NCBI GenBank assembly: GCA_044356325.1
Contig: JBIKWJ010000001.1
Location: forward strand, 152,992 to 216,991
DNA: 64,000 nt
DNA from: Minisyncoccia bacterium
GTDB lineage: Bacteria; Patescibacteriota; Minisyncoccia; SW-4-49-11
Direction of reading: 5' to 3'
Program-made: the position numbers and the translations under genes
In this document: piece after piece, positions 4,849 through 56,197 of the stretch
Numbering within the stretch: the stretch's first letter is position 1
How the letters are laid out: each line of letters begins with the position of its first letter
Notes under the pieces: generated by a model
The model's database searches: none
What the model was told of the DNA's origin: nothing
The model's input: the letters and a program-made list of their open reading frames with translations, nothing else

Positions 4849-6054
4849 ATGAAATCAAAGATTAATCTCGTCATTATATCACATGCCTATGTCTATTCTG
4901 CCTATAGAGCTAAAATTGAGGCTTTATCAGAATATCATGATCTCAATATCACCCTCATTACACCGGAATTTGGATTAGAAGGTGGTGGACAAAAAGTATA
5001 TGCTGAGCAATATGAGGGTAAACAATATCACCATATTATATTATCAGGATATTTTACGGGGAAATTAAACTTTTTTGTATTCAAAAATCTCAAATCAACT
5101 CTACAATCTCTTAACCCAGGTATTATACTTTTGGAAGAAGAATATTGGACTCAAATTGCCGCTCAGGTGACATATATTACGAAAAGTTTCTTCCCCCAAA
5201 CCAAGCTTATATTATTATCACAAGAGAATATTTGTCATATTTGGGAAAAAGAGGCAGAAACTCTCTATCAAAAATTTCGCTATACTTCATTTCACTTTAT
5301 TGAGAAATATGTCCTATCAAGACTTGATGGGCTTATATTCCAATTCCCTGAAGTATGGCAAGATTTTGAAAATCGTGTGAATGCTCTAGGTTTCAAAGGA
5401 AAACGAGGTATACTCCCTCAACTTGGAGTTGATTATAATAGATTTGCTGATAATTCACCCAAATTACAAGAGATAAGAACAGAATTAGAGCTTGATGATA
5501 ATACCTTCATATATGGCTATATTGGGAGAATTACTCCAGAAAAAGGTATTGAAGATATGATTCATGCCTTTGAGAATTGGGATAAAAATAATACTAAACT
5601 CATTATTATTGGGAATGGTGATACTGAATATGTAAATCAAATCAAGCAACTGGTACAGACATTAAAACTTGATGATATTGTCATATTCAAAAATGCTATC
5701 CCCTTTGAAGATATTCCTGCTTATTTTCAATTATTCAATATTTCTCTCTTACTCTCTCATACCACGCCTATTTGGAAAGAACAATTTGGACGAGTTTTGG
5801 TAGAGTCTATGGCAGCTGGAACTCCCGTTATTGGTTCAGATAGTGGGGCTATTCCCTTAGTTATTGGGGATACAGGCTATATTGTAGCTGAACAAAATAT
5901 ACAAGCTATTAGACAAGCTTTAATAGAGACAATTGAGAATAAAAAGAAATATACTCTATTATCTAAGTTAGCGCAAGAGAGAGTAAACACAGAATTTTCT
6001 TATGAGGCTATTGCTCGTAAAACCTATAATTTTATTCAAGAGATTTATAAATAA
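4849..6054 (+). CDS. Glycosyltransferase, GT4 family
   Basis: 401 aa. C-terminal GRITPEKGIED...ESMAAGTPVIGSDSGAIP is the characteristic GT4 donor-binding region. Confidence 0.8.
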   Translation: MKSKINLVIISHAYVYSAYRAKIEALSEYHDLNITLITPEFGLEGGGQKVYAEQYEGKQYHHIILSGYFTGKLNFFVFKNLKSTLQSLNPGIILLEEEYWTQIAAQVTYITKSFFPQTKLILLSQENICHIWEKEAETLYQKFRYTSFHFIEKYVLSRLDGLIFQFPEVWQDFENRVNALGFKGKRGILPQLGVDYNRFADNSPKLQEIRTELELDDNTFIYGYIGRITPEKGIEDMIHAFENWDKNNTKLIIIGNGDTEYVNQIKQLVQTLKLDDIVIFKNAIPFEDIPAYFQLFNISLLLSHTTPIWKEQFGRVLVESMAAGTPVIGSDSGAIPLVIGDTGYIVAEQNIQAIRQALIETIENKKKYTLLSKLAQERVNTEFSYEAIARKTYNFIQEIYK

Positions 6055-42522: not shown

Positions 42523-44580
42523 TCAAATAATATCATTATCTTGTAATTCTTTTTCTGTAATAATAGTAATGCCTAATTTTTTTGCTTTTGAGAGTTTACT
42601 CCCAGCATCGAGCCCCACTATTAATATATCAGTTTTTAAACTTATCTGAGAAGCTACAATACCTCCCTGTTCTTCAATAATTGACTGTAATTCTTTTCGC
42701 GAAATGGTAGCAAATGTTCCGGTAATACAAATGGTTTTATCATTCCATTTCCCCTTTCTTACTGTCTCATATTCAATATTGATACCCGATTTAATAAGAC
42801 GAGATATGATATCGATATTATGAGTGTTATGAAAAAACTCAATAATAGATTGCGATACTTTATCCCCAATATCTGGAATATTTTGTAATTCTTCAATTGT
42901 AGTTATCAGTAAATCATCTAATGATTTGAAAGTACGAGATAATTGTAGCGCTGTTTGACTGCCAACCATTGGAATACCAAGAGCTTGAATAAATCGCCTA
43001 AAAGAAATATGCTTAGCATTCTGAATACTGGTAAACAAATTATGGGCAGACTTTTCACCAAAACCAGCAGTGACACGAATATCATCTAAAGTTAATGTAA
43101 ATATATCATTAATATGTTGTAATAATCCTGCTTCTTGCAAGCGAATTAATAATTTTTCACTAAGTCCCACAATATGAAACCCCTCTGCTGATACTGCATA
43201 AGACAAATATCCAATATTACGCGCAGGACATTTGGTATTTGGACAATATCTATTGACTTGATTCTCTTGTTGTATAAGTGGGGTATTACATTCGGGGCAA
43301 TTTTCTGGATATTGATATTCAGTCTCCACCCCTATTCTTAGCTCTGGTAATACTTGTACAATCTCAGGTATTACATCTCCTGCTCGCCTAATAATAACCG
43401 TATCTCCAATTTTCAAATTTAATCTTGCAATTTCATCTTGATTATGAAGAGTGGCTCTGGTCACAATCACCCCATATACATTAACAGGCTTCATAATTGC
43501 AACAGGAGTTACCTTCCCCGATCTTCCAACTTGAGAAATAATATCAACTACTTGAGTTGTTACCTCCTCAGCAGGAAATTTGTAGGCAATCATAAATCGA
43601 GGTCCTTTACCCGTAAATCCTAATTGATCTTGTATATTCTTATCATTGACTTTGACCACCATTCCATCATAAGCAAAATCAATCTCCTCTCTGAGAGAAT
43701 ATACATATTTATAATGGGCTTGCACCTCTTGTATATTGGATACTAATATATTTTCTTTAACCACAGGGAAGCCTAAAGTTTCCAAAATCCAATATTCCTC
43801 TTGTTGTGTTTGTTGTCCTAAATCAGTAATAAGCCCCCAAGCAAAAAAACTAAGCCCCCTACTCGCCGCAATACTACTATCTAATTGCCTGATTGACCCT
43901 GCAGCTAAATTTCGAGTATTAGCATATTCAGACTGACCATTTGTTTTTAATTCTCTATTCAATTTCTGTAATTGAGAATCCCTCATATAGACTTCTCCCC
44001 TTACCTCACAACTGCCCTGCCATTTTGATTGAAATCTCTCTGCCAAATCTGCATTATGAGATTTTAATTGCTGTATATTATCTTCTGTAATTGATAGGTA
44101 AAGAGGAATATCTTGAATAGTACGAATATTATGACTAATATTCTCTCCTTCTCTTCCATTGCCTCTTGTAAGACCCTGTACAAATTCTAAATTTTTATAA
44201 GTAAGGCTTACTGCCAGTCCATCTAATTTTAATTCTACAAAATATTGCCAATTATCATTATTAGATACAATACCCTTATTTCTGTGCTCCCATTGATATA
44301 ATTCCTCTTCATCAAAGACATCATTGAGGGATATCATCGGGACTTTATGTGCAATTTTCTCAAATTGACGTAATACCCCCCCCCCCACTTTTTGCGTTGG
44401 AGAATCTGGAGTAATAAGTTCTGGATATTCTGTCTCTAATGTTGATAATTCATGCATCAAACTATCCAATACCCCTCCCGAAACAGTCGATTTATCATTA
44501 ATATGATAGTTAGACCGATGTTTTTTTATCTCCTGCTTTAATTTTTGAATTCTATCAATAATATTTTTATTATAACTCAT
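42523..44580 (-). CDS. ligA: NAD-dependent DNA ligase
   Basis: KLDG adenylation lysine motif, a Zn-finger Cys cluster, HhH and BRCT regions. The track ORF extends to 44841, but the ATG at 44580 (MSYNKNIIDRIQKL...) is the plausible start. Confidence 0.85.
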   Translation of the reverse strand: MSYNKNIIDRIQKLKQEIKKHRSNYHINDKSTVSGGVLDSLMHELSTLETEYPELITPDSPTQKVGGGVLRQFEKIAHKVPMISLNDVFDEEELYQWEHRNKGIVSNNDNWQYFVELKLDGLAVSLTYKNLEFVQGLTRGNGREGENISHNIRTIQDIPLYLSITEDNIQQLKSHNADLAERFQSKWQGSCEVRGEVYMRDSQLQKLNRELKTNGQSEYANTRNLAAGSIRQLDSSIAASRGLSFFAWGLITDLGQQTQQEEYWILETLGFPVVKENILVSNIQEVQAHYKYVYSLREEIDFAYDGMVVKVNDKNIQDQLGFTGKGPRFMIAYKFPAEEVTTQVVDIISQVGRSGKVTPVAIMKPVNVYGVIVTRATLHNQDEIARLNLKIGDTVIIRRAGDVIPEIVQVLPELRIGVETEYQYPENCPECNTPLIQQENQVNRYCPNTKCPARNIGYLSYAVSAEGFHIVGLSEKLLIRLQEAGLLQHINDIFTLTLDDIRVTAGFGEKSAHNLFTSIQNAKHISFRRFIQALGIPMVGSQTALQLSRTFKSLDDLLITTIEELQNIPDIGDKVSQSIIEFFHNTHNIDIISRLIKSGINIEYETVRKGKWNDKTICITGTFATISRKELQSIIEEQGGIVASQISLKTDILIVGLDAGSKLSKAKKLGITIITEKELQDNDII

Positions 44581-44593
44581 AGTTTGGTATATA

Positions 44594-45895
44594 TTATCTA
44601 ATGTAAACCTCAACTCTTGCTTTTCTATTAATACCCGTGGAGTCGTTACAACAATGCACCACATCTCCTGCTGAATAATTTGTACCATTAACTCCCCATA
44701 CCCCCCCCATACCAATGCCTCCAGAAACATCGTTTGAACCAATATATGGAGTAGAAGTACTTGGTTGTAATGAGTACAAACCTTCTCCATTTTCATTCCA
44801 TCCAAACCCCCATCTAACTTTTCCATGCGATACGCCACCATAAGGATAACTCACATAATTAAACCCATAAAATTGAATATCTGGTTGACTACTAAATATA
44901 CCATTTTTCCAACCACTGAAAGTTTTTGCATCCATTATAAACTTACCCCCTCCAAAAGATGTCATAGGATATGTTTTACTAAAAAAATTTATTGGTGCTA
45001 TTTTATTAGCATTCCCTGCTCCATTAAAATTTTCTGCTAACCATGTCCAGCCCAATTGAGAAGCATTTATAGAGCCTCCGTTTTGTATATCAGGCCAGAT
45101 AGCCATAATGTCTTGTGCTTCAAAATAATTCATAGTGTTAAACTTAGCATCTGAGTCATTTCTAGTAGTATCATTTGGATTTAAAACTGTAGCAGTAGTC
45201 CAATGATTAGAATCGTATCCAAAGGTAGTACCCTGCGTTGCTTTCATCATCATCATCCAACCACCACCAGCATAAATAGGGTCTAGAATACAGTAAACTT
45301 TTGTTGGCCCTACTACGGGTAAATCAATCCAGTATGCTCCATTACTAGTAAATCCTTTTTCTACTAAATACTTAGCACTTGGAGCCGCTTTAGCTACCGA
45401 AGATCCATCCTTTACTTGAACAGAAGAGACTTGAAACGCTTGTTCCAAGGTTCGCTCTATAATAGTATTACCCCTAACCACTCTTCCTTTAGCAATAATA
45501 AGAGGTAATATTGGAGGAGTTACTAGAATATTACCTGCTTGAAACTCAACCCTATATTGAATAGATGATACACCTACACTAGATAATTCAATCCACTCCT
45601 TTCCAGAACTATCTGTTTCTATTGTTTCCCCAATAGTACTACTATTAGGCCAAGTACTATTTAATGGGATAGCAATATCAACATCACCCTTTTGTACCCA
45701 TTGATATTGCCAGGCATCAAGCCCTGTATTAGCAGCTTGTAATGCCTGTTGGGAATACATATTTTCTCGAGATATACGAGATTCAACGGTAACTTTTTGA
45801 GACAATGCCAATAATAATATAAGCATTGTAGCTGATACCATAATAGTAACAAATAGAGTAATATCTCCTTTATACTGTTGTGGGCTATTCTTCAT
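44594..45895 (-). CDS. Pilus-associated protein with an N-terminal pilin-like TM segment and a putative fibrinogen-related (FReD-like) lectin domain
   Basis: 433 aa. KVYCILDPIYAGGGWMMMMKATQGTTFGYDSNHW resembles the FReD core VYCDM..DGGGWTV..R.DGS..F.R.W. Last gene of the pilin gene block. Confidence 0.45.
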   Translation of the reverse strand: MKNSPQQYKGDITLFVTIMVSATMLILLLALSQKVTVESRISRENMYSQQALQAANTGLDAWQYQWVQKGDVDIAIPLNSTWPNSSTIGETIETDSSGKEWIELSSVGVSSIQYRVEFQAGNILVTPPILPLIIAKGRVVRGNTIIERTLEQAFQVSSVQVKDGSSVAKAAPSAKYLVEKGFTSNGAYWIDLPVVGPTKVYCILDPIYAGGGWMMMMKATQGTTFGYDSNHWTTATVLNPNDTTRNDSDAKFNTMNYFEAQDIMAIWPDIQNGGSINASQLGWTWLAENFNGAGNANKIAPINFFSKTYPMTSFGGGKFIMDAKTFSGWKNGIFSSQPDIQFYGFNYVSYPYGGVSHGKVRWGFGWNENGEGLYSLQPSTSTPYIGSNDVSGGIGMGGVWGVNGTNYSAGDVVHCCNDSTGINRKARVEVYIR

Positions 45896-45938
45896 ATTAC
45901 TATTAATTATTTAAGAGTTTATACAACCAGATTATTTA

Positions 45939-46937
45939 TTAAGGGAGATCTCTAATAGGACCAGTACCTGTTGGCCAGACACAGTTAACATTTATATGGT
46001 AGTTACCATTATAATCACCATAATTATTACAAGTCTCAGTCCCCCCAGGTTGAAATCCTTGTATACTAGAGCCTGGTCCAGCAGGTACTCCCCATACAGT
46101 TGAACAAATAGAACTTATAACTCCAGGGTCAGTACAGGCACCCTCAAAACCAGTTGGACCTCCCGCACAAGTATCCGCATATCCTGAGTAAGCTGTATAA
46201 GCTTGAGTTAATTCACATTTCCATATACCACTTCTCTTAACTGCGCTATAAGCAATGCCTCCACTCTGTGTTGCACCATTACACGATGTCCGGCTTCTAA
46301 GATTGTAAAGTGTATTACATCTAATCTGTGCTTCTGGTTGAGTTAATATTGGTGTTGGAGTTGGAGTTGGTGTTGGTGTTGGAGTTGGTGTTGGAGTTGG
46401 TGTTGGAGTTGGTGTTGGAGTTGGTGTTGGAGTTGGTGTTGGAGTTGGTGTTGGTGGAGTTAAAGAATTATTTCGTGGCATTGTAGTTGATTGCATTGTA
46501 ACTGTATCTTTACCATCTACAGATTTGGCTGTAATAACTACAGTCACTATAGTTCCTGGGCTATTATTATTTACTGAACTACCATCCCCAGCCTTAATAA
46601 AAAATCTAATATCCTCAACGGTAAATACACTAGAATCAGTATAGGCATTACCTGACTTATTGATAATATTGCCAGCTTTTGTATATACTACATTTGCACC
46701 ACTTTGATCTTTAAATGATAATGCACCTGATGCATTAATACTAAGATTCGATGAGGTTCTCAATTCTTTGTCCATCACATTCAAAACAAATTGCACATTA
46801 TCTCTTACATTATCACTTTGTTGAGAATCTCTTTGATATTTGATAATATTAGTAATAGGTTGGGCTACTACCAATACAATAATAGATAATATACCGATTA
46901 CCACTGTTAATTCTGTTAGAGTAAATCCTTTTCTCAT
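45939..46937 (-). CDS. Type IV pilin-like protein with a (TP)n linker and a Cys-rich C-terminal domain
   Basis: Prepilin leader MRKGFTLTELTVVIG is a class III signal. About 25 tandem TP dipeptides. The C-terminal roughly 130 aa contain 10 Cys. Confidence 0.6.
   Translation of the reverse strand: MRKGFTLTELTVVIGILSIIVLVVAQPITNIIKYQRDSQQSDNVRDNVQFVLNVMDKELRTSSNLSINASGALSFKDQSGANVVYTKAGNIINKSGNAYTDSSVFTVEDIRFFIKAGDGSSVNNNSPGTIVTVVITAKSVDGKDTVTMQSTTMPRNNSLTPPTPTPTPTPTPTPTPTPTPTPTPTPTPTPTPTPTPILTQPEAQIRCNTLYNLRSRTSCNGATQSGGIAYSAVKRSGIWKCELTQAYTAYSGYADTCAGGPTGFEGACTDPGVISSICSTVWGVPAGPGSSIQGFQPGGTETCNNYGDYNGNYHINVNCVWPTGTGPIRDLP
46351..46462. repeat. Tandem repeat (ggtgtt/ggagtt units, about 9 x 12 bp) encoding the (TP)n linker
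   Basis: Perfect 6/12-bp periodicity visible in the DNA. Confidence 0.8.
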
Positions 46938-46953
46938 ATATTTAATCCGCAAT

Positions 46954-47478
46954 CTATTTTTTATTAATATCAAATAATTCCATATCTGCTGAATATATTT
47001 TGGTCTTATTTAAATTCAAGTTTCTTACTATAACGGTACTTTTAACTTTTATTCTATCTAGATTAACTGTATCCGATTGTACGGTAATATAGCGATAAAA
47101 TATAGTACCAGCAGTACCCAAAATATAACCATTATTGCCATCTTGTATTAAAGAACAGGTATTATTCCAGGTAGTTGTACTACAAGTTGAAGTTAAGCTC
47201 AAACCATTTTGAATATTCGTTTTATAATCAACTACATATTTACCATCAGCCAATCCAGCATTCCATACTGCCCCTGGGGTAGTGTCATTAAGATTACTTT
47301 GATATATGGCTCTTACTATCTCTAATCCCTCGGACATCAATAAATTAGCAGTATTATCATATTGCTTATCAAACTTAGCTTTAATAATACCTACCTGTAA
47401 ATTTAAAAGTGGAATAAAGGTAATTAATAATATTGATATTGCAACCAATGCACCTACTAATGTGGCTCCTTTTTTCAT
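46954..47478 (-). CDS. Minor pilin-like protein (non-canonical, lacks Glu5)
   Basis: 174 aa. MKKGATLVGALVAISILL hydrophobic N-terminus after a basic leader. Sits inside the pilin gene block. Confidence 0.45.
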   Translation of the reverse strand: MKKGATLVGALVAISILLITFIPLLNLQVGIIKAKFDKQYDNTANLLMSEGLEIVRAIYQSNLNDTTPGAVWNAGLADGKYVVDYKTNIQNGLSLTSTCSTTTWNNTCSLIQDGNNGYILGTAGTIFYRYITVQSDTVNLDRIKVKSTVIVRNLNLNKTKIYSADMELFDINKK

Positions 47479-47479
47479 A

Positions 47480-47962
47480 TTAGTTTACTTTTATTAACCC
47501 TGAGTTTGTCACGGTGATTGTCTTTGCTACAACCCCTGATAATTCTAATTGTAATGATTTTTCGCCAACTGTATTAGTTGCAAAAGGAAGTCTAAATTCA
47601 AATGCTCCTGTTGCTGTTCCAAAACTTGCAGCACTTAATACAATTTCCTCTCCATAATCTTCAGTATCATTGCAAGCCCCTCCAACTCCATCAACTACAT
47701 AATAAGATTGTAGTTTTTTCTGAGCATTAAAACGTACTCCCATAGCACAAAGTTTATCATTAACTCCCATTCCCAAATCACCGGTAGAGGGTGATAAAGC
47801 TCTATTCTGAGCTTGTCTGATAGCAGAGGTTACAGTTATTACATCTGCTTTTAATTTTGCACTACGCTGAGTAGTGATATAGGATTGTACTCCAATAGTA
47901 GATAATATAGTAATAATAGAAATAGATACGAGTAGCTCTGCTAATGTGAATCCTTTTTGCAT
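47480..47962 (-). CDS. Type IV minor pilin / pseudopilin
   Basis: 160 aa. MQKGFTLAELLVSISII prepilin-type N-terminal cleavage/methylation motif. Confidence 0.65.
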   Translation of the reverse strand: MQKGFTLAELLVSISIITILSTIGVQSYITTQRSAKLKADVITVTSAIRQAQNRALSPSTGDLGMGVNDKLCAMGVRFNAQKKLQSYYVVDGVGGACNDTEDYGEEIVLSAASFGTATGAFEFRLPFATNTVGEKSLQLELSGVVAKTITVTNSGLIKVN

Positions 47963-47964
47963 TT

Positions 47965-48798
47965 TTATATATTAAGTATAATCCAATAATACCATATATT
48001 AATAGGTGGGACAAGCTGAATTTGAATTAAGGTATATACTATTACAAATGAAAGTATAATACTTGGTCCAAAAGCAATTTTTTGCTTGAGAGAAGAATTC
48101 CGATTCATAAGCATTACCCATATTCCCCATATCATTCCTATCACAAATGAGCCAAAGAAAAATGGAACAAACCACATCAAAGGGATAAATAATCCGAGTC
48201 CCGCAAATAATTCCACATCCCCCCAACCTATACCCTGTTTTTTGGTAATAATATATAAGAATAATACAATACCAGCACTAGTAATAGCGGTTATGAGTGA
48301 ATCGGGTATAATTGGTCTTGTTTGATAATACTCTAGACAGAAATATATTAGTCCCAATATTTGTATAGCACGTAGCTGAATTATGGAAATCAATTGATAC
48401 CGTAAATCATATACAAAGACAATAATAAGTTGAGTTATAAGAATAAATATAATAAGCCCTCGTATATACTGTATTGGAGTAAATGTATACAGAGATACTA
48501 AATCTGGAATATACAAATAAGCAAATCCTGTAAAAAGAACGGCTGTTAATAATTCTACAAGAGGGTATTGCAGAGATAATTTCACTTGACATTCTCTACA
48601 TCTACCCTTTTGTATAATATAAGACAATAGTGGTATAAGCTCATACCATTCAAGAGTATGATGACAAGACATACATTCTGATCTACCATTCCAAAATTTT
48701 TTCTCGCTGGTCATCCTGAATAATACCACATTCAAAAAACTCCCTATACCTAAACCTAAAATAAATATTATTCCTAATATATAATATATTGCATCCAT
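47965..48798 (-). CDS. pilD: Prepilin peptidase (A24 family)
   Basis: 277 aa. N-terminal CxxC...CxxC zinc-binding region, polytopic TM body with conserved Asp residues. Confidence 0.8.
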   Translation of the reverse strand: MDAIYYILGIIFILGLGIGSFLNVVLFRMTSEKKFWNGRSECMSCHHTLEWYELIPLLSYIIQKGRCRECQVKLSLQYPLVELLTAVLFTGFAYLYIPDLVSLYTFTPIQYIRGLIIFILITQLIIVFVYDLRYQLISIIQLRAIQILGLIYFCLEYYQTRPIIPDSLITAITSAGIVLFLYIITKKQGIGWGDVELFAGLGLFIPLMWFVPFFFGSFVIGMIWGIWVMLMNRNSSLKQKIAFGPSIILSFVIVYTLIQIQLVPPINIWYYWIILNI

Positions 48799-48889: not shown

Positions 48890-49276
48890 TTATGGACAAG
48901 CAACGGCAGTTGCTGCTGGCGCAGACGTAAGATTCTTTGAGACTCCCGCACTATCAACACAATAAAATCCTCCTGAAGGAAGAGCTGACCATGACACAAA
49001 AGTTGTTCCCAAAGCACTACTTTCACTCAAACTACCCCCATTATTAGAGATTGTAGTTCTAATTGGTGAACTAGATGGTGTGGCAACATAACCAGTACCA
49101 GGATTATTTAACTCTTTATCTGATCTAATTTGTGCTAAAGCTGATATAATTGCAGTATCTCTCGCCTTAGTACGAGCACTTGACACATTCACCAATACTA
49201 CTGCAGCTAAAATACCAATAATAGCAATAACTACAAGTAATTCGATAAGTGTAAATCCTTTTCTTAATTGTTTCAT
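48890..49276 (-). CDS. pilA: Type IV major pilin candidate
   Basis: 128 aa. MKQLRKGFTLIELLVVIAIIGILAAV canonical class III signal. C-terminal Cys pair forms a disulfide-bonded loop. Confidence 0.75.
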   Translation of the reverse strand: MKQLRKGFTLIELLVVIAIIGILAAVVLVNVSSARTKARDTAIISALAQIRSDKELNNPGTGYVATPSSSPIRTTISNNGGSLSESSALGTTFVSWSALPSGGFYCVDSAGVSKNLTSAPAATAVACP

Positions 49277-49335: not shown

Positions 49336-50553
49336 TTATAATGTTCCTGCTATATTGTAAATAGGTAACATTATGGATACCACAAATATAGCGACTCCTA
49401 TCCCTAATACTACTATCATTACAGGCTCTATTAATACCGTTAAATTATCCACAATAACATCTACTTCTTTTGTATAAAAAGTAGACAAAGTTTTAAGTAC
49501 TGATTGTGTTTTACCTGTTTTTTCTCCTACCTTCATAATTTGTGTTGCAATCAGAGGAAATTCTGGGTGTCGGGCAAATGCTTTTGTCATCTCTGATCCC
49601 GCTTTTATTTCATTGACAGCCTCCTTAATAATTCCTGTAAAAACAAAATTATCAACTATATCTGAGCTAATTTCAAGACATCTAATAATGGGAATTCCTC
49701 CCGCTATTAGAGTTGACATATTAGTGGAAAACTGAGTAATATATATTTTGGTAAATAAAGATCCAAATATTGGTAATCTTAATTTCCATTTATCACTCCA
49801 GCGTTTACCAGCTATTGTACGCAAATAATACCAAAACACCCCTGCAATAGCTATTATTCCTCCTAATATAAGTAAAATATATTGTTGTATAATATCTGAA
49901 ATCCAAATAATTATCTGAGTTGTAATAGGTAATTTAACATCAGATCCAAGGCTATCCAATACAGTAACTAATTGCGGCAAAACATAATAAGAAATACCAA
50001 GTCCAATTATTACAAATATTGATAATACAACAGTCGGATAAAGCAAGGCCCCTCTTACCTTATTATTAAGATCATATTGACTCTCCAGATAAGTAGCCAA
50101 ATAAGCAAGTGATCCTTGTAACCCGCCAGAAACTTCTCCAGAATTAACCATAGCAACATATAATGATTTAAATACCTTAGGATGCTTAGCTATTGCTTCA
50201 GAGAATAAACCCCCGTCTTGGACATCCGCTATTATTTGATCTAATACAAGAGCAAAATACTTATTTTTTTTATTTTGTTCTCTTAGGTCAGCAAGTGCAT
50301 CAACAAGAGGAATCTGTACTTCAAGAAAAGTAGCTAATACTCGAGAAAATAAAACTAATTCCCGATCTGAAACTTTATTGAACAATGCTAAATCTTGCTT
50401 AAAAACAGATTGTTGATTTGTATTTTTAAGAGAAATAATAATAAGACCTTTTGACTGTAAATCTGTTATAGCAATATCTTCATTGAGTGCTGTTATAAAG
50501 CCCTGTACTGTACGTCCATTTTGTGATTTTGCTAAATAACTAAATTTTACCAT
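49336..50553 (-). CDS. pilC: Type IV pilus inner-membrane platform protein (GspF/PilC family)
   Basis: 405 aa. Duplicated GspF-type domain with three TM segments. Confidence 0.8.
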   Translation of the reverse strand: MVKFSYLAKSQNGRTVQGFITALNEDIAITDLQSKGLIIISLKNTNQQSVFKQDLALFNKVSDRELVLFSRVLATFLEVQIPLVDALADLREQNKKNKYFALVLDQIIADVQDGGLFSEAIAKHPKVFKSLYVAMVNSGEVSGGLQGSLAYLATYLESQYDLNNKVRGALLYPTVVLSIFVIIGLGISYYVLPQLVTVLDSLGSDVKLPITTQIIIWISDIIQQYILLILGGIIAIAGVFWYYLRTIAGKRWSDKWKLRLPIFGSLFTKIYITQFSTNMSTLIAGGIPIIRCLEISSDIVDNFVFTGIIKEAVNEIKAGSEMTKAFARHPEFPLIATQIMKVGEKTGKTQSVLKTLSTFYTKEVDVIVDNLTVLIEPVMIVVLGIGVAIFVVSIMLPIYNIAGTL

Positions 50554-50571
50554 ATATATAGTCTCTTATTT

Positions 50572-51645
50572 TTATGATGTTGCTCTTTTTAACATATTAC
50601 TAAGATTCATTGGGTCTGGAGAGTATAGTAATGCCGTCTCAAAAGAAACGACTCCTGTTCGAATAAGATCAAACAATGATACATTCATAGACACCATACC
50701 TTCTTTACGATGAGTCTCTATCACAGTATCTAATTGATAAATTCGATTTTCCCGAATAAGACTTTTTACTGCATTATTAGCTAATAAAATTTCAAGTGCA
50801 GGAGTAAGATCTCCGTTAACAGTAGGAATAAGTCTCTGGGAAATGACGGCCTGAAGGGAAGTTGCTAATTGTGATCTTACCTGTCCTTGCTGATGAGTAG
50901 GGAACGTATCTATAATACGATCGATAGATTGAGCAGCACTATTAGTATGTAATGTAGAAAACACTAGATGACCTGTCTCAGCAGCTGTAACTGCAACTTG
51001 CACGGTATTAAGATCTCTCATTTCTCCAACGAGAATTACGTCTATATCCTGGCGAAATGATGATTCAAGAGCATTAGTAAAACTGCCTGTATCGTATCCA
51101 ACTTCTCTTTGGGTAATAATGCTTTTATCAGAACTGTAAATAAACTCAATAGGATCCTCAATGGTAACAATTTTGACATCACGGGTATGATTTATATCAT
51201 TAATAATCGAGGCCAATGTAGTAGATTTACCAGATCCAGTTGGTCCCGTAACAAGTATAAGACCCTGCATTAGTTGAGAAAATTGACGTACTACGGATGG
51301 CAATCCCAATTGATCAAATGTTAAAATTTCTGATGGTAAATATCGCATAACAAGATTTGGATTCCCCTGAGCAATAAAAGCATTTACACGAAATCGAGCA
51401 TTACCCTCTACGAATGTATAAGCAAAATCTTGTTCTTTTCCACCATATAAAGCTAATATTTGATCTTCTCGTAAAATAATCTTTAAAAACTCATCGAGAG
51501 CTTCTTTTGTTAGGATAGGTTGATCTTCAAGTACAAGCAATCTATTTTTAACTCTTAATACAGGCTTATTACCTGTAATAAGATGTATATCGGATCCTTT
51601 TGCACTCATTATTTGTGTTATGATTGATTGTAAATCGATGATCAT
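50572..51645 (-). CDS. pilT: Twitching-motility retraction ATPase
   Basis: 357 aa. Walker A GPTGSGKSTT, Asp box, His box. Short PilT-type architecture with no N-terminal GSPII domain. Confidence 0.8.
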   Translation of the reverse strand: MIIDLQSIITQIMSAKGSDIHLITGNKPVLRVKNRLLVLEDQPILTKEALDEFLKIILREDQILALYGGKEQDFAYTFVEGNARFRVNAFIAQGNPNLVMRYLPSEILTFDQLGLPSVVRQFSQLMQGLILVTGPTGSGKSTTLASIINDINHTRDVKIVTIEDPIEFIYSSDKSIITQREVGYDTGSFTNALESSFRQDIDVILVGEMRDLNTVQVAVTAAETGHLVFSTLHTNSAAQSIDRIIDTFPTHQQGQVRSQLATSLQAVISQRLIPTVNGDLTPALEILLANNAVKSLIRENRIYQLDTVIETHRKEGMVSMNVSLFDLIRTGVVSFETALLYSPDPMNLSNMLKRATS

Positions 51646-51657
51646 ATGTATGTTATT

Positions 51658-52038
51658 TTAAGATGTTGGTAAGTACTTTTTTACTGTACGCATTACCTCT
51701 GTAGGAGTATAATTTGATTTTACAATATAATCAACCGCTCCTAATTCAAAAGCTTGATTTATATCCGCCTGAGAAGATAAATTACTCAAAACTACAACAG
51801 GAATATCCTTAAGCTGGGGTTTCTTTTTTATCCACTGCAATATATCAAACCCTCCAACGTCTGGGAGTATAAGATCTAGAAGAATCAAACTAACTTGACT
51901 GTTGCTTTGAGTAAGAATATCTTTTACTTCTGATTGATTAGAGGCAGTCAAAACACTAAATCCTAATTCATCAATTTTTGTAGCATACATCTGTGTGATA
52001 AAGCTGTCATCTTCAATTAATAATATGTAATTCTTCAT
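51658..52038 (-). CDS. Stand-alone response-regulator receiver domain (CheY/PilH-like)
   Basis: 126 aa. LLIEDD...D...LILLDLILP...K receiver residues. Located between pilB and pilT. Confidence 0.7.
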   Translation of the reverse strand: MKNYILLIEDDSFITQMYATKIDELGFSVLTASNQSEVKDILTQSNSQVSLILLDLILPDVGGFDILQWIKKKPQLKDIPVVVLSNLSSQADINQAFELGAVDYIVKSNYTPTEVMRTVKKYLPTS

Positions 52039-52099
52039 ATGTATATATTTTTATTTACTCTTATTCTGTATTGATAATATCATATGTTTATTATTTTGC

Positions 52100-53848
52100 C
52101 TATACCTCTATAGTTGTTAATAATTCAGGCAAAGAAAGATGACCCTGTAATACTTTTAATATTCCATCTTGTTTTAAGGTAACATAATTATGAGCTCTTA
52201 GATATTCAGAAACATCTTTTTCATTGAAGTTTTTTTCTACAATTGCCTGTAATTCTTCTGTCATTACTACTACTTCAAAAATACACATTCTTCCTTTAAA
52301 CCCATTACTACATTTAGCACATCCAACGGGAATATATAATGAATCATAGTTACCCGTATATATTTCTCGTATATAATCTTGACTCAATGAGCTAATAGCC
52401 TCTTGAACATATTCTTTTTCTTTTCCCTCCAAAGGGACTTCCTTTTTACAGTCTGGACATAGTTTTCTTACCAATCGCTGAGCAATAACTATTTGAAGGG
52501 CTGCAGAAAGTAAAAATGGCTCCACCCCCATATCAATAAGTCGAGGCAAAGCACCGGGAGCATCATTAGTATGCAATGTTGAAAAAACAATATGCCCAGT
52601 CAAGGCTGACTGTACCGCAAGTCCCGCAGTCTCACCATCTCGAATCTCACCAACCATAATAATATCAGGATCTTGTCGTAAAATTGATCTAAGACCTGAT
52701 GCAAAGGTATAGTTGATTTCTGGTTTTACTTGAGATTGATTAACACCAGACAAATAATACTCTATTGGATCTTCTAAGGTTACAATATTAATATCTTCAG
52801 TATTAACTTGAGATAAAAGAGTATAAACTGTGGTCGATTTTCCTGATCCTGTTGGACCTGTTAACAAAATCATACCAAATGGCTTTTTGATTCCTTCTTG
52901 AATCAAATTGACTCGAGGCCCAACAAATCCTAATTGCTCTAAAGATCTAATGCCATCTGAAGTGTCTAAAATTCTCAACACCACCTTTTCTCCATATTGA
53001 GTAGGGAATGTAGATACACGAAAATCTACTTTTTTATCCTTATCTAAAATAGAAAATCTTCCATCTTGTGGCTTTCTCTGTTCATCAATTTTAAGATTTG
53101 ATAAAATCTTAATACGAGCAACAACAGGAGAATAAGTATCCTTAGGTAAAATCAAACTCGTATGTAATACCCCATCTACGCGAAATCTTACTCGTACTGA
53201 TTCATCAGTACCTTCAATATGTATATCTGAAGCACCGCCTTCTACAGCATTTTTAATAATAACTGATACAATTTTAATAATAGGTGCAGTTTCTAAGTTT
53301 TCTGTTGTAATTCCAGTAACATCTGGTAATATTTGATCTTTTTCATTCTTTTGATGAAACTCTTCAAGATTTTCTGTAACTGCATTAGTTAAATTTGATG
53401 TTTTTTTGAGAGCTTGCTTAATATCTGATTCTATTGCTACAAACAATTCAAAAGATAGCTTCTTCTCTTGAAAAATAAATTTTAATGCTTGTAAAGCTGT
53501 ATAATTTTGAGGATCAGCTATAGCAATAGAAATTACACTATTTTCTTGGGCAAAAGGGATTAATGTATACCGTTGCATAATATGAGTCGGGAAAATATTA
53601 TATAATTCTGTTGGTATGATAATATTTTCTAAGTCTACAAATTCTAATCCCAAAATTTGAGCATTTACCCTTGCTAACTCTTTTTTCGTAAAATTCTGCT
53701 CAAGAAAAACCTTCAGTTCTTCTTCTGTCAAAGAATTAAAAGAAGGAATTGATTTCAACTTATCAGGAAAATCATTTTTTAGTGATTCAAATGTTTTTTT
53801 TAAATCTAATTGCATATTATAATTTAAAATAACTACTAATGGTATCAA
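52100..53848 (-). CDS. pilB: Type IV pilus assembly ATPase (GspE/PilB family)
   Basis: 582 aa. N-terminal GSPII-like domain, Walker A GPTGSGKSTT, C-terminal tetracysteine CPDC...CAKC. The true start may be the internal MQLDLKK. Confidence 0.85.
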   Translation of the reverse strand: MIPLVVILNYNMQLDLKKTFESLKNDFPDKLKSIPSFNSLTEEELKVFLEQNFTKKELARVNAQILGLEFVDLENIIIPTELYNIFPTHIMQRYTLIPFAQENSVISIAIADPQNYTALQALKFIFQEKKLSFELFVAIESDIKQALKKTSNLTNAVTENLEEFHQKNEKDQILPDVTGITTENLETAPIIKIVSVIIKNAVEGGASDIHIEGTDESVRVRFRVDGVLHTSLILPKDTYSPVVARIKILSNLKIDEQRKPQDGRFSILDKDKKVDFRVSTFPTQYGEKVVLRILDTSDGIRSLEQLGFVGPRVNLIQEGIKKPFGMILLTGPTGSGKSTTVYTLLSQVNTEDINIVTLEDPIEYYLSGVNQSQVKPEINYTFASGLRSILRQDPDIIMVGEIRDGETAGLAVQSALTGHIVFSTLHTNDAPGALPRLIDMGVEPFLLSAALQIVIAQRLVRKLCPDCKKEVPLEGKEKEYVQEAISSLSQDYIREIYTGNYDSLYIPVGCAKCSNGFKGRMCIFEVVVMTEELQAIVEKNFNEKDVSEYLRAHNYVTLKQDGILKVLQGHLSLPELLTTIEV

Positions 53849-53999
53849 AATTAGGTGTAACCATATCCGAATCCCCAGTAGATATATGATTTAATATGAT
53901 GGATAATACCCCATATCCAAAGTAAACCATAGCCATAATAGCACATAAAACTATAATTAATTTTTGATGTTTTCCAATCAGCTGAGAGATATTTTTCAT
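53817..53999 (-). CDS. Possible small single-TM protein between pilO and pilB
   Basis: 60 aa with one hydrophobic helix. Does not overlap pilB if pilB starts at its internal Met. Confidence 0.25.
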   Translation of the reverse strand: MKNISQLIGKHQKLIIVLCAIMAMVYFGYGVLSIILNHISTGDSDMVTPNFDTISSYFKL

Positions 54000-54001
54000 A
54001 T

Positions 54002-54589
54002 TTATTTATAATAGGTTATTGCATTTATAGTTCCTTCTACACCATCCAAACCTTTATCAAAAGATAAATTAACCGTATCAATTACTATATATCGTTTTGA
54101 TTGTGTTAATTTTTGCAAAAAGGTATATACTTCTCTTTTACCTCCTGTTATTTTTAATATTATTTTTACTGATTTAAAGGTATTAATAGAAACCTTATTA
54201 GCATCTAAATCATTAGTGTTTTTTACTTTTGTCATCTTCTCATTCATAGGAACAGGAATAGAAGGCATTTCAATACCCACCTCTTTTGTAACTTTCTCAT
54301 CCGTAGAAATAGAAGATATTTCAATATTAGCCTCTCTTGCAAATTGAGTTAACTCACTAGTAATCACCCCCTTATCTAATGTTTCTGGAGCAAATTCATT
54401 AATTCTTTTTACCAATTCTGCAGGGGATTTTTGATTAGCAAATGATTGCGTGATTTTTACTTTTCTTTGCAACTCCTTTAATTCAGATAATTTGTTAGTT
54501 AGAGAGTCGGAATAAAAATTGGTTATCGTCCAAATTAAAGTGATAAATATTATACAAAATAGCATGGGTAAAAGATTTTTTTTATTCAT
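54002..54589 (-). CDS. pilO: PilO-like pilus assembly protein
   Basis: 195 aa. N-terminal TM then a periplasmic coiled-coil. Identified by position between the pilN-like gene and pilB. Confidence 0.45.
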   Translation of the reverse strand: MNKKNLLPMLFCIIFITLIWTITNFYSDSLTNKLSELKELQRKVKITQSFANQKSPAELVKRINEFAPETLDKGVITSELTQFAREANIEISSISTDEKVTKEVGIEMPSIPVPMNEKMTKVKNTNDLDANKVSINTFKSVKIILKITGGKREVYTFLQKLTQSKRYIVIDTVNLSFDKGLDGVEGTINAITYYK

Positions 54590-54594
54590 ATCAT

Positions 54595-55137
54595 CTATTT
54601 TAACTTAATCGATATATTAAGATTCACGCCTCCCCCTTCAGAGCTTTTCGTAAGATCAGGATAAGAGACATCAATAATTCCTTTAACTTTTTTTATTTTA
54701 GCTATTTGTGAATTAGCAACTTCAAAAGAAGATGCTTCTGCTGAAAAAACAATACTCTTTTTTTGTTTATTATATGTCCAGGAATTTGTTTTGAAATCTG
54801 CATCATATGTTGCCTCAATTTCTTGGATAATTTCTGTTATATCATATGTCTGAGAAATTATAGTATTTACATTATATACTGTTTGTTCTAAATCATCTTT
54901 GGGATAATATATACTATTTTTTGCATTTAAATCTGATAAAATCTGAGTATATTTATTTGTAGGATTTATTACATAAAACCAATAAATACCACTTAATACT
55001 CCTATATATATGATTAATGCCGATACAAACCCAATAATATATCCTCGATAAGGATGTTTTTCTATTACAGTTACATATCCCTCTAAACCTTTTTGTGTAT
55101 TAGGAATAAAACTAATATTTTCCATATTATTCGACAT
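54595..55137 (-). CDS. pilN: PilN-like pilus assembly protein
   Basis: Single TM (IIGFVSALIIYIGVLSGIYWF) then a periplasmic domain. The start was chosen at MSNNMENISF, overlapping the pilM end by 11 nt; the track ORF runs to 55245. Confidence 0.45.
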   Translation of the reverse strand: MSNNMENISFIPNTQKGLEGYVTVIEKHPYRGYIIGFVSALIIYIGVLSGIYWFYVINPTNKYTQILSDLNAKNSIYYPKDDLEQTVYNVNTIISQTYDITEIIQEIEATYDADFKTNSWTYNKQKKSIVFSAEASSFEVANSQIAKIKKVKGIIDVSYPDLTKSSEGGGVNLNISIKLK

Positions 55138-56197
55138 AATCTTTAAGAGAAATTCCAATTGACAAAACCAAATCATGCCAAATTCTATGAAGAACATTTT
55201 CATCTTCAACCCCCTTAATACTAAGATTAGAATATGGCTTCGCAACTGTAATATTAACTTTTTGACCTAATCCTAATTGATTATTAATAACCAAATCAAC
55301 AAATTCTCGAATTCCTTCTGTTTTAGAAAATCCTCCTAATAATACAATATCTTGTATTTTTTCTTCATTATTATCTTGAAATTGCCTAATAATACGCAAC
55401 ACCTCATTTTCAAAAAAACTTTTAATAGCTGATTGTATCAAAGCTGAAACTTCTGAATTAGCACCCGTTATTCCATTTTCTTTTTTAAGTTTTTCAGCTT
55501 CTATACTTGATGTTTTTTGCAAACCAGAAATAGCATCTGTGATATGATTACCCCCAAAATCAAATGACTGTATAAGCTGTAATTGTTTTTCGGTATTAAC
55601 AATGCTGACTGTACTAGTTCTTGCTCCAATATCTACAATACATACCTGACTATTTGGCAAATCAATAGAACGAATAGTAGAAAATGCATCTAATTCAAAG
55701 CCTTTAATACTAATTCCCAAAACCTTGCTCACTTCAATATAGGTATTTACAACACTATTAGGAATAGCAATCAATAATATATTTAACTTATCTTTACCTT
55801 TATTCGGTCCTAAATTCATCCAATCTAACTGCACACTATTCAGAGGAACTGGAATATGCTGTTTTGCCTCAAGAGGAACAGCTGTTACTAATTCCTCATA
55901 TGACAAAATAGGAAAAGGGACAACCGCTGAGAAGGCAAGATACGAAGGTATCGCGATATATGCTTCCTTTATTTTCATTTGAGAAGCACTCAACATAGCC
56001 CGTATAATCCTTGTAATTTTATCTACAGAAATAATATTCTGCCCACCCCTTTCTTGAATAATATTATCTAAAGTATCATCCCAAATACTATAATTAATGA
56101 CAGATATTTTACCACCCTGTTTTTGAACTTCAGAAATTTTGATAGTTTGAGTACCAATATCAATACCAAACGAATTTTTTACTCCTAATCCTAACAT
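55127..56197 (-). CDS. pilM: Type IV pilus assembly ATPase-fold protein PilM (actin-like)
   Basis: 356 aa. N-terminal FGIDIGTQTIKI actin/Hsp70-fold phosphate-1 motif. First gene of the pil operon. Confidence 0.75.
   Translation of the reverse strand: MLGLGVKNSFGIDIGTQTIKISEVQKQGGKISVINYSIWDDTLDNIIQERGGQNIISVDKITRIIRAMLSASQMKIKEAYIAIPSYLAFSAVVPFPILSYEELVTAVPLEAKQHIPVPLNSVQLDWMNLGPNKGKDKLNILLIAIPNSVVNTYIEVSKVLGISIKGFELDAFSTIRSIDLPNSQVCIVDIGARTSTVSIVNTEKQLQLIQSFDFGGNHITDAISGLQKTSSIEAEKLKKENGITGANSEVSALIQSAIKSFFENEVLRIIRQFQDNNEEKIQDIVLLGGFSKTEGIREFVDLVINNQLGLGQKVNITVAKPYSNLSIKGVEDENVLHRIWHDLVLSIGISLKDYVE

Follow-up and report, generated by a model that had tools for sequence, protein, structure and literature searches.

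The 64,000-nucleotide (nt) stretch analyzed here (the window), from contig JBIKWJ010000001.1 of a Minisyncoccia bacterium, carries a complete type IV pilus (T4P) operon on its minus strand at approximately 44.6–56.2 kb. The last two genes of this operon are termed ORF B and ORF A (open reading frames of 332 and 433 amino acids (aa)), and each joins a pilin-like N-terminal module to a large C-terminal domain, or head. A first-pass annotation had singled out these two genes as pilus-linked adhesin candidates, and their coordinates, strand and position at the end of the pilin block are as it gave them. The explanation favored here, with fair confidence, is that both proteins are modular tip pilins whose host-binding heads are exchanged as cassettes. 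Gene order, pilin signatures, fold similarity, the distribution of the head family and cassette exchange are supported directly by the data given below.

Four minor pilin genes follow the major pilin gene; taken in order, they partly match GspH/ComGD, PilV, ComGF/GspJ and PilX_N. By sequence they look like the usual H-I-J-K minor-pilin set, in which ORF B would be the J-like and ORF A the K-like member. The features of the two genes are as follows.

44594–45895, minus strand: ORF A, 433 aa, fourth minor pilin (PilX/GspK-like position) with an intelectin-like C-terminal head (ORF list, homologues, structure model)
45431–45895, minus strand: ORF A pilin-like N-module, residues ~1–155 (homologues, weak PilX_N match, model)
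44597–45418, minus strand: ORF A head, residues 160–433, fibrinogen-related domain (FReD) superfamily, intelectin-like fold, C-terminus ...VEVYIR
45939–46937, minus strand: ORF B, 332 aa from the ATG at 46937, third minor pilin (ComGF/PilW/GspJ-like) with a (TP)18 stalk and an 8-Cys head (ORF list, NCBIfam ComGF, TIGR02532)
46467–46937, minus strand: ORF B pilin module, residues 1–157, class III signal MRKG|FTLTE
46347–46460, minus strand: ORF B (TP)18 linker, residues 160–197 (Tandem Repeats Finder, TRF)
45942–46343, minus strand: ORF B head, residues 199–332, eight invariant Cys, orphan domain

The head of ORF A and its relatives

ORF A holds the string KVYC(202)ILDPIYAGGGW(213), followed by W232. 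This is exactly the VYC...GGGW...W spacing that the first-pass annotation compared with ficolin-type FReDs. NCBIfam model NF040941 (GGGWT_bact, "fibrinogen-like YCDxxxxGGGW") gives 19.4 bits with ORF A (E = 8e-4), which is under its 30-bit cut-off; all 43 homologues tested match this model at E ≤ 1, the best with E = 7.5e-13. In the profile search suggested at the outset, with PF00147, neither ORF A nor any of the 43 homologues is hit at E ≤ 1, and a search of all Pfam is likewise without a FReD hit. Two archaeal members of the head family (L029 and L039) pass PF00147 with 32.1 and 34.4 bits (gathering score 22), at profile positions 4–58. As judged from sequence, the link between the ORF A head and PF00147 is thus one of transitive homology only.

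A phmmer search of PDB sequences with ORF A yields nothing meaningful. A profile of the head family finds a lamprey intelectin-like lectin in the PDB (E = 0.0032), and alignment of a more diverse family profile with intelectins by hhalign gives a probability of 94.7% (E = 6.4e-8) over the first ~44 columns. Significant alignment to intelectins and FReDs is confined to 44–51 N-terminal columns. Global or low-stringency hhalign shows nothing significant past ~50 columns, and the ligand residues could not be mapped by it.

Structure prediction was also proposed initially. The AlphaFold2 (AF2) model has a predicted local distance difference test score (pLDDT) above 90 for residues 160–300 and of 65–83 thereafter. 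In a Foldseek search with the head model the top 45 PDB hits all have the FReD fold; the best is XEEL (E = 3.9e-5), followed by lamprey LSVL. The modelled head displays the three-dimensional FReD fold and, with the region that extends past the FReD-like part, also the intelectin fold. The predicted FReD-like lectin fold is therefore upheld by homology (NF040941, the intelectin profile match and the archaeal matches to PF00147) and by the fold itself, with the amendment that the nearest structural branch is that of the intelectins (X-type lectins) and not of the ficolins. The GGGW resemblance thus reflects homology, intelectins being the closest structural relatives. The data do not support placing the head in the intelectin family proper: the identity is only 13%, the Cys framework is absent and the ligand residues cannot be mapped.

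The first Cys of FReDs is replaced by Ser173 in 94% of the head family, and the A-subdomain disulfide that joins this Cys to the Cys of YCDM is absent. The Ca2+ residues of the P domain and the acetyl-binding residues of FReDs are not alignable in the head. An invariant segment, W366-N367-E368-N369, is placed opposite C259-N260-T261-E262 of intelectin in low-confidence alignments only, in a region of pLDDT 52–83. Motifs invariant throughout the family are RWGFGWNEN, SxDxxGGIG, SAGDxxxCC and GxNRxxRxExYxR-COOH. These motifs may form a conserved metal/sugar site.

The head family has at least 841 members in many architectures, nearly always at the extreme C-terminus. Species-representative genomes with the head include the candidate phyla radiation (CPR) groups Paceibacterota, Parcubacteria, Saccharibacteria and Levyibacteriota; the DPANN archaea Nanoarchaeota and Woesearchaeota; freshwater Bacteroidota, cultured isolates included; and Actinomycetota and Acidobacteria, often at the ends of giant proteins. 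The nearest such genome that holds a relative of the head is a metagenome-assembled genome (MAG) of Candidatus Paceibacterota, which places the bacterium of the window among the ultra-small CPR/Patescibacteria. CPR genomes also show the head on canonical PilA-like pilins (L010/L011, P0024). In archaea the heads follow N-termini that resemble archaeal class III signals (PF04021, E = 0.0025); L029 and L039 were scanned and both have such N-termini. The DPANN homologues L029 (Nanoarchaeota), L039 (archaeon) and L037 (Woesearchaeota) keep the first FReD Cys together with YCDM..GGGWT, and the heads of CPR bacteria, phages and Bacteroidota have Ser where the DPANN versions have the first Cys. MAGs of freshwater Actinomycetota (acI/Planktophila among them) and Acidobacteria have the head at the end of ORFs of >1,700–2,280 aa (L041, L042, L045, L047, L049, L050–L053), which may be cellular adhesins or prophage/phage tail proteins.

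The head is also found in phages. A tblastn search of phage genomes shows T4-like cyanophage homologues in six cyanomyoviruses, with 34%–48% identity over 91%–100% of the head (99%–100% for the eight best). One of these, P-TIM40 gp043, lies between two tail-fibre-assembly genes and downstream of a tail-fibre gene. Another, S-H9-1 gp075, directly follows the gene of a 2,936-aa baseplate wedge protein. The BFVD model of a P-HM2 protein (E3SSV2) matches the head with E = 1.3e-20.

A lectin function is probable for the ORF A head. Several points speak against this assignment and against a role in host recognition. Past the first ~45–50 residues the likeness to intelectins and FReDs is structural only, and the model reaches a pLDDT of only 52–83 in the second half of the head, the part in which intelectins have their ligand site. 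The only Cys residues are C202, C415 and C416, against many Cys in intelectins, so that the intelectin Cys pattern is absent, and equivalents of intelectin N260, E262, E274, H263, W288 and Y297 are not assignable. The head core is also very strongly conserved across phyla, which is easier to reconcile with a common ligand than with a strain-specific receptor.

The heads may bind ligands without being lectins. The ORF A head would then recognize a protein or other non-glycan receptor, as do the FReDs of fibrinogen gamma-C, angiopoietin and tenascin. Many of the FReD-fold hits are indeed protein-binding (angiopoietin-2, tenascin, FGL1), and ligand-site residues of neither intelectins nor ficolins can be placed on the head. 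This alternative is considered unlikely.

The Cys-rich head of ORF B and head exchange among syntenic loci

ORF B carries a different head on a (TP)n stalk. The stalk of residues 160–197 is encoded by a 12-nt tandem repeat of 8.8 copies with a 95% match (nt 46349–46460, TRF). It is present as had been described, with 18 TP dipeptides rather than the ~25 first reported. The C-terminal 134 residues contain 8 Cys, and not 10 as in the earlier count. The comparison of TP number among orthologues that had been called for shows that it varies: 18 in the window, ~3–4 in P0183, whose head is 98% identical, and none in L002/P0121. A 4-Cys module, NCxxLNHSATRTQSCP...TEQCNDG.I..ISNxC, appears as an alternative pilin-head stalk that replaces the (TP)n linker (P0087 residues ~158–200; P0191; P0197; L002 8001–8996; L059 4001–4846).

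The 8-Cys head was found in only five near-identical sequences (window, P0183, P0121, P0122 and P0087), and its 8 Cys are invariant. A full-length search was dominated by TP-rich low-complexity matches; a word-indexed search with the 8-Cys head gave one near-identical fragment. No PDB match and no phage match to this head were found, and its AF2 model (pLDDT 58) is too poor for a fold search. Its position and its interchange with other heads suggest that it is an alternative binding head.

Six further loci share the PilC-PilA-PilD-H-I-J-K gene order with the window, and ligA follows wherever the contig continues. With the window this makes seven syntenic loci, each with its own combination of heads on the two shared pilin scaffolds.

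Window: J-like pilin, (TP)18 and 8-Cys head; K-like pilin, intelectin-like head
L002: J-like pilin, 8-Cys head with no TP repeat; K-like pilin, 4-Cys stalk and 8-Cys head
L001: J-like pilin, headless; K-like pilin, 8-Cys head
L004: J-like pilin, unknown domain X; K-like pilin, headless
L003/L008: J-like pilin, domain X and intelectin-like head; K-like pilin, head like formylglycine-generating enzyme (FGE)-sulfatase (PF03781)
L058: J-like pilin, headless; K-like pilin, a further unrelated head
L059: J-like pilin, headless; K-like pilin, a further unrelated head

The pattern marks the J-like and K-like tip pilins as carriers that can stand in for each other. The K-like pilin of L008 (6782–8107, P0198; Paceibacterota P_PACE2) has as its head an FGE-sulfatase domain, which is SUMF1-like and of C-type-lectin-like fold.

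Two of these loci will be used to show the relationship in detail. L002 comes from a strain nearly identical to that of the window: the PilB, PilA and UppS proteins have 100% identity and the flanking DNA has 98%–100%. Between ~42.6 and 47.7 kb of the window (42600–47700) the identity falls to 86%–95%, and this trough covers ligA and the four minor pilins. The intelectin-like head has no counterpart in L002, which carries the Cys head twice. The extent of the trough suggests a recombination tract larger than the head cassette.

The second case is that of a distant locus. PilC of L003 is 56% and the first two minor pilins are 38%–41% identical to those of the window, and the other pilus proteins of L003/L008 show 38%–79% aa identity. 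The intelectin-like head of L003/L008 is 82% identical to that of the window in aa sequence and 85.5% in DNA sequence, and it is located on the J-like scaffold.

Assembly artefacts were considered as a source of these mosaic proteins and rejected, since long contigs assembled from independent samples carry the same mosaics. A repeat search around the cassette for recombination sites found the TP repeat only. An IS200/IS605-type Y1 transposase gene (PF01797) is present between ligA and murG in L004 (5841–6344) and L059 (7293–7667), beside the variable minor-pilin genes. In the window, ligA lies directly downstream of the pilus operon, and the ligA-murG gap is 48 nt, without a transposase insertion.

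The head exchange also bears on the type of pilus. CPR bacteria rely on imported nucleotides, and T4P are often tied to competence. This general background, together with the resemblance of ORF B and an orthologue to ComGF, could indicate that the pilus is mainly a machine for DNA uptake or motility, with heads that serve DNA capture or general surface attachment rather than host recognition. None of the heads resembles a DNA-binding module, however, and the replacement of heads at strain level and the occurrence of such heads in phage tail-fibre modules as well are typical signs of receptor recognition. A competence or motility role is accordingly judged improbable.

The pilin modules and the pilus operon

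The ORF B N-terminus, MRKG|FTLTE, scores 24.3 bits with TIGR02532 (cut-off 16.3) and 21.1 with Pfam N_methyl (cut-off 21.2). The canonical class III prepilin signal attributed to this protein is thus present. The pilin module is ComGF/GspJ-like (NCBIfam ComGF, E = 2.4e-7) and shares 76%–82% identity with its orthologues in L001 and L004, which are headless or have another head.

The pilin-like N-termini ascribed to both proteins hold in canonical form for ORF B only. That of ORF A, MKNSPQQYKG|DITLF, is hydrophobic, is not a canonical prepilin signal and has no Glu5. PilX/GspK-type pilins lack Glu5. The N-terminus is followed by a conserved motif, SQQAxQAANTGLDAW, of which SQQAxQAAxxG is invariant among homologues, as is Gly10-Asp11. 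An exhaustive search with residues 1–160 shows ~20 relatives (50% clustering), most of them stand-alone proteins of 140–160 aa. The sole family signal is a weak full-length PilX_N match (E = 0.95 for ORF A; best 0.016 among homologues). The AF2 model of the module has a long alpha-helix followed by beta-strands, at low pLDDT.

Two further points tell against ORF A as a tip pilin. The profile of its N-module finds no pilin in the PDB, and the case for its incorporation into pili is drawn from gene order, because the N-terminus is non-canonical, the pilin module is poorly modelled and there is no significant PDB or Pfam match. A protein without the G-F-T-L-x-E motif and with these weak module matches could instead be a surface protein held in the membrane by its N-terminal hydrophobic helix as a simple anchor, with a gene that adjoins the pilins by chance or for co-regulation. 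In all the syntenic loci, however, the gene is found at the place of the fourth minor pilin; the site where cleavage is expected has an invariant Gly10, and PilX/GspK-type pilins typically carry the QAxQAAxxG motif. In addition, headless versions of ~150 aa are the commonest form, and the same heads alternate between the ORF A scaffold and the canonical prepilin ORF B. A simple anchor is on these grounds quite improbable.

The operon lies in an AT-rich window (G+C 29%–40%). PilM, PilB (MshEN and T2SSE domains), PilT, PilC and PilD were identified by Pfam. Its other features are the following.

46954–47478, minus strand: second minor pilin (PilV/GspI-like), 174 aa, MKKG|ATLVG (TIGR02523 PilV, E = 0.0066; position kept in all syntenic loci)
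47480–47962, minus strand: first minor pilin (GspH/FimU/ComGD-like), 160 aa, canonical MQKG|FTLAE (N_methyl 27.8 bits; GspH/ComGD matches)
47965–48798, minus strand: prepilin peptidase PilD (PF06750, PF01478)
48890–49276, minus strand: major pilin (N_methyl 38.5 bits)
49336–50553, minus strand: PilC (Pfam)
50572–51645, minus strand: PilT (Pfam)
51658–52038, minus strand: response regulator (ORF list/Pfam)
52100–53815, minus strand: PilB (Pfam)
55127–56197, minus strand: PilM (Pfam)
49336–56197, minus strand: the assembly machinery as a whole, PilC to PilM (Pfam, ORFs)

Pfam gives no match at E ≤ 0.001 for two ORFs at 54002–55137, which lie between pilM and pilB where PilN and PilO are usually encoded. 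The locus lacks a PilY1 gene. The major pilin (window 48890–49276) is also variable: it is 100% identical in L002, and of the L001 major pilin (5092–5556) only the N-terminal 78 residues align (61.5%), while PilD is 94% identical.

Proposed function and comparison with known systems

That the VYC...GGGW string is a coincidence and the head unrelated to FReDs, the outcome named by the first-pass annotation as fatal to its proposal, has next to no chance of being true: the silence of PF00147 and the sub-threshold NF040941 score are outweighed by the Foldseek FReD-fold hits, the hhalign match to intelectins and the archaeal proteins that pass PF00147, which already refute it.

The favored explanation of modular tip pilins can be put in the following form. 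ORF B would be the GspJ/PilW-like and ORF A the GspK/PilX-like subunit of a minor-pilin complex that primes T4P assembly and stays at the tip. Each protein would consist of a pilin module of ~155 aa and a C-terminal head that projects from the tip, with a stiff (TP)18 stalk as spacer in ORF B and a short Ser/Val-rich linker in ORF A. The ORF A head is a prokaryotic/viral representative of the fibrinogen-related superfamily, with an overall fold closest to intelectins. It would most likely bind a surface glycan of the cell to which the episymbiotic Paceibacterota bacterium attaches, and PilT-driven retraction may then draw both cells together. The tip location, the lectin activity, the ligand and the role in host attachment are inferred, and host-surface glycan binding by the heads, as first suggested, has the same standing.

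The heads are cassettes: they are replaced or duplicated, they move between the J-like and the K-like scaffold, and lineages exchange them. Members of this head family are also found in cyanophage tail-fibre/baseplate modules and on archaeal pilin-like proteins. Because heads are exchanged as cassettes and the family is common to cyanophage tail modules and archaeal pilin-like proteins, the locus would behave like a phage receptor-binding-protein (RBP) locus that sets and diversifies host range.

How CPR/Patescibacteria and DPANN archaea find and hold their hosts is little understood, and type IV pili are the main suspects; the locus described here is a concrete, testable candidate. The intelectin-like head of ORF A is a good candidate for the part that recognizes the host cell, because of the intelectin fold and its occurrence in cyanophage tail-fibre clusters and on DPANN pilin-like proteins. 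The head has relatives in phage tail-fibre modules, and its presence or absence differs between near-identical strains. The head shows good conservation and should lend itself to tests in recombinant form; its fold predicts a lectin for microbial glycans. If the head does bind glycans, the head type could predict host range from metagenomes, a pool of receptor-binding modules common to phages and episymbionts could be traced, and the origin of animal intelectins could be revisited.

Intelectins have been described as chordate proteins (PMC12800186), and lamprey intelectin has been speculated to derive from phage or bacterial FReD proteins (PMC9682848). A speculative extension, doubtful at present, is that the intelectin fold may be no chordate invention. 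It might be an old prokaryotic/viral host-recognition module common to three sorts of ultra-small parasites of microbes, CPR bacteria (T4P tip pilins), DPANN archaea (pilin-like proteins) and phages (tail-fibre modules), exchanged among them as a cassette and recognizing microbe-specific glycans by a Ca2+/diol chemistry that was later adopted for animal innate immunity.

Much of the concept of modular or lectin-like pilins is already known. The first-pass annotation regarded a FReD on a bacterial pilin as unusual, which is overstated: ten such proteins were listed in 2021, in which pilin domain IPR012902 is followed by the fibrinogen C-terminal domain IPR002181, directly (8) or after IPR013545 (2) (PMC8179133, Dataset S1). 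Fibrinogen-C domains are also on record for surface proteins of Patescibacteria (PMC13059738). Modular pilins with lectin or von Willebrand factor A (vWA) modules mediate adhesion of S. sanguinis (PMC8179133, PMC9934059), and the lectin-like minor pilins PilX1/PilX2 of Saccharibacteria have been implicated in host binding (PMC11623550). The intelectin-like nature of the whole head, the sharing of the head among CPR pilins, DPANN pilin-like proteins and cyanophage tail-fibre modules, and strain-level head swapping between two adjacent pilin scaffolds were not found in the searchable literature.

ORF A and ORF B resemble S. sanguinis PilB (vWA) and PilC (ConA-like lectin) and Saccharibacteria PilX1 and PilX2 (L-type and PLL-type lectin-like) in that a small pilin module bears a grafted C-terminal binding module and the genes lie among T4P minor pilins; for those proteins a role as adhesins at the tip has been proposed or shown (PMC8179133, PMC9934059, PMC11623550). 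Unlike them, the heads in the window, which come from a Paceibacterota bacterium, are intelectin/FReD-like and an orphan 8-Cys domain, and two adjacent scaffolds, J-like and K-like, carry heads that are swapped between strains.

With classical FReDs (ficolins, tachylectin-5A-type lectins, angiopoietins; PF00147) the ORF A head has the superfamily fold in common. It differs from intelectins (human ITLN1 4WMQ, Xenopus XEEL, lamprey LSSL) in its 13% identity and lack of the conserved disulfides, and neither the Ca2+/diol ligand residues nor the aromatic box is identifiable. Intelectins are secreted oligomeric immune lectins, whereas this head is prokaryotic/viral and fused to pilins or tail-fibre-type proteins.

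The likeness to phage RBPs and tail-fibre distal domains (P-TIM40 gp043, S-H9-1 gp075, P-HM2 E3SSV2) is one of true full-length homology, with the phage genes in tail-fibre/baseplate clusters, and extends to cassette-like exchange and strain-level variability at the pilin locus. The cyanophage homologues are annotated as hypothetical, and only their context suggests an RBP role; the head in the window would be delivered on a retractile pilus and not on a virion. Finally, the PilY1/PilC tip adhesins of type IVa pili also place a large adhesin with modular, variable binding modules on a minor-pilin tip complex of the FimU-PilVWX type (PMC8179133). PilY1 is a separate non-pilin protein with a beta-propeller, whereas the binding modules described here are fused directly to the J-like and K-like pilins.

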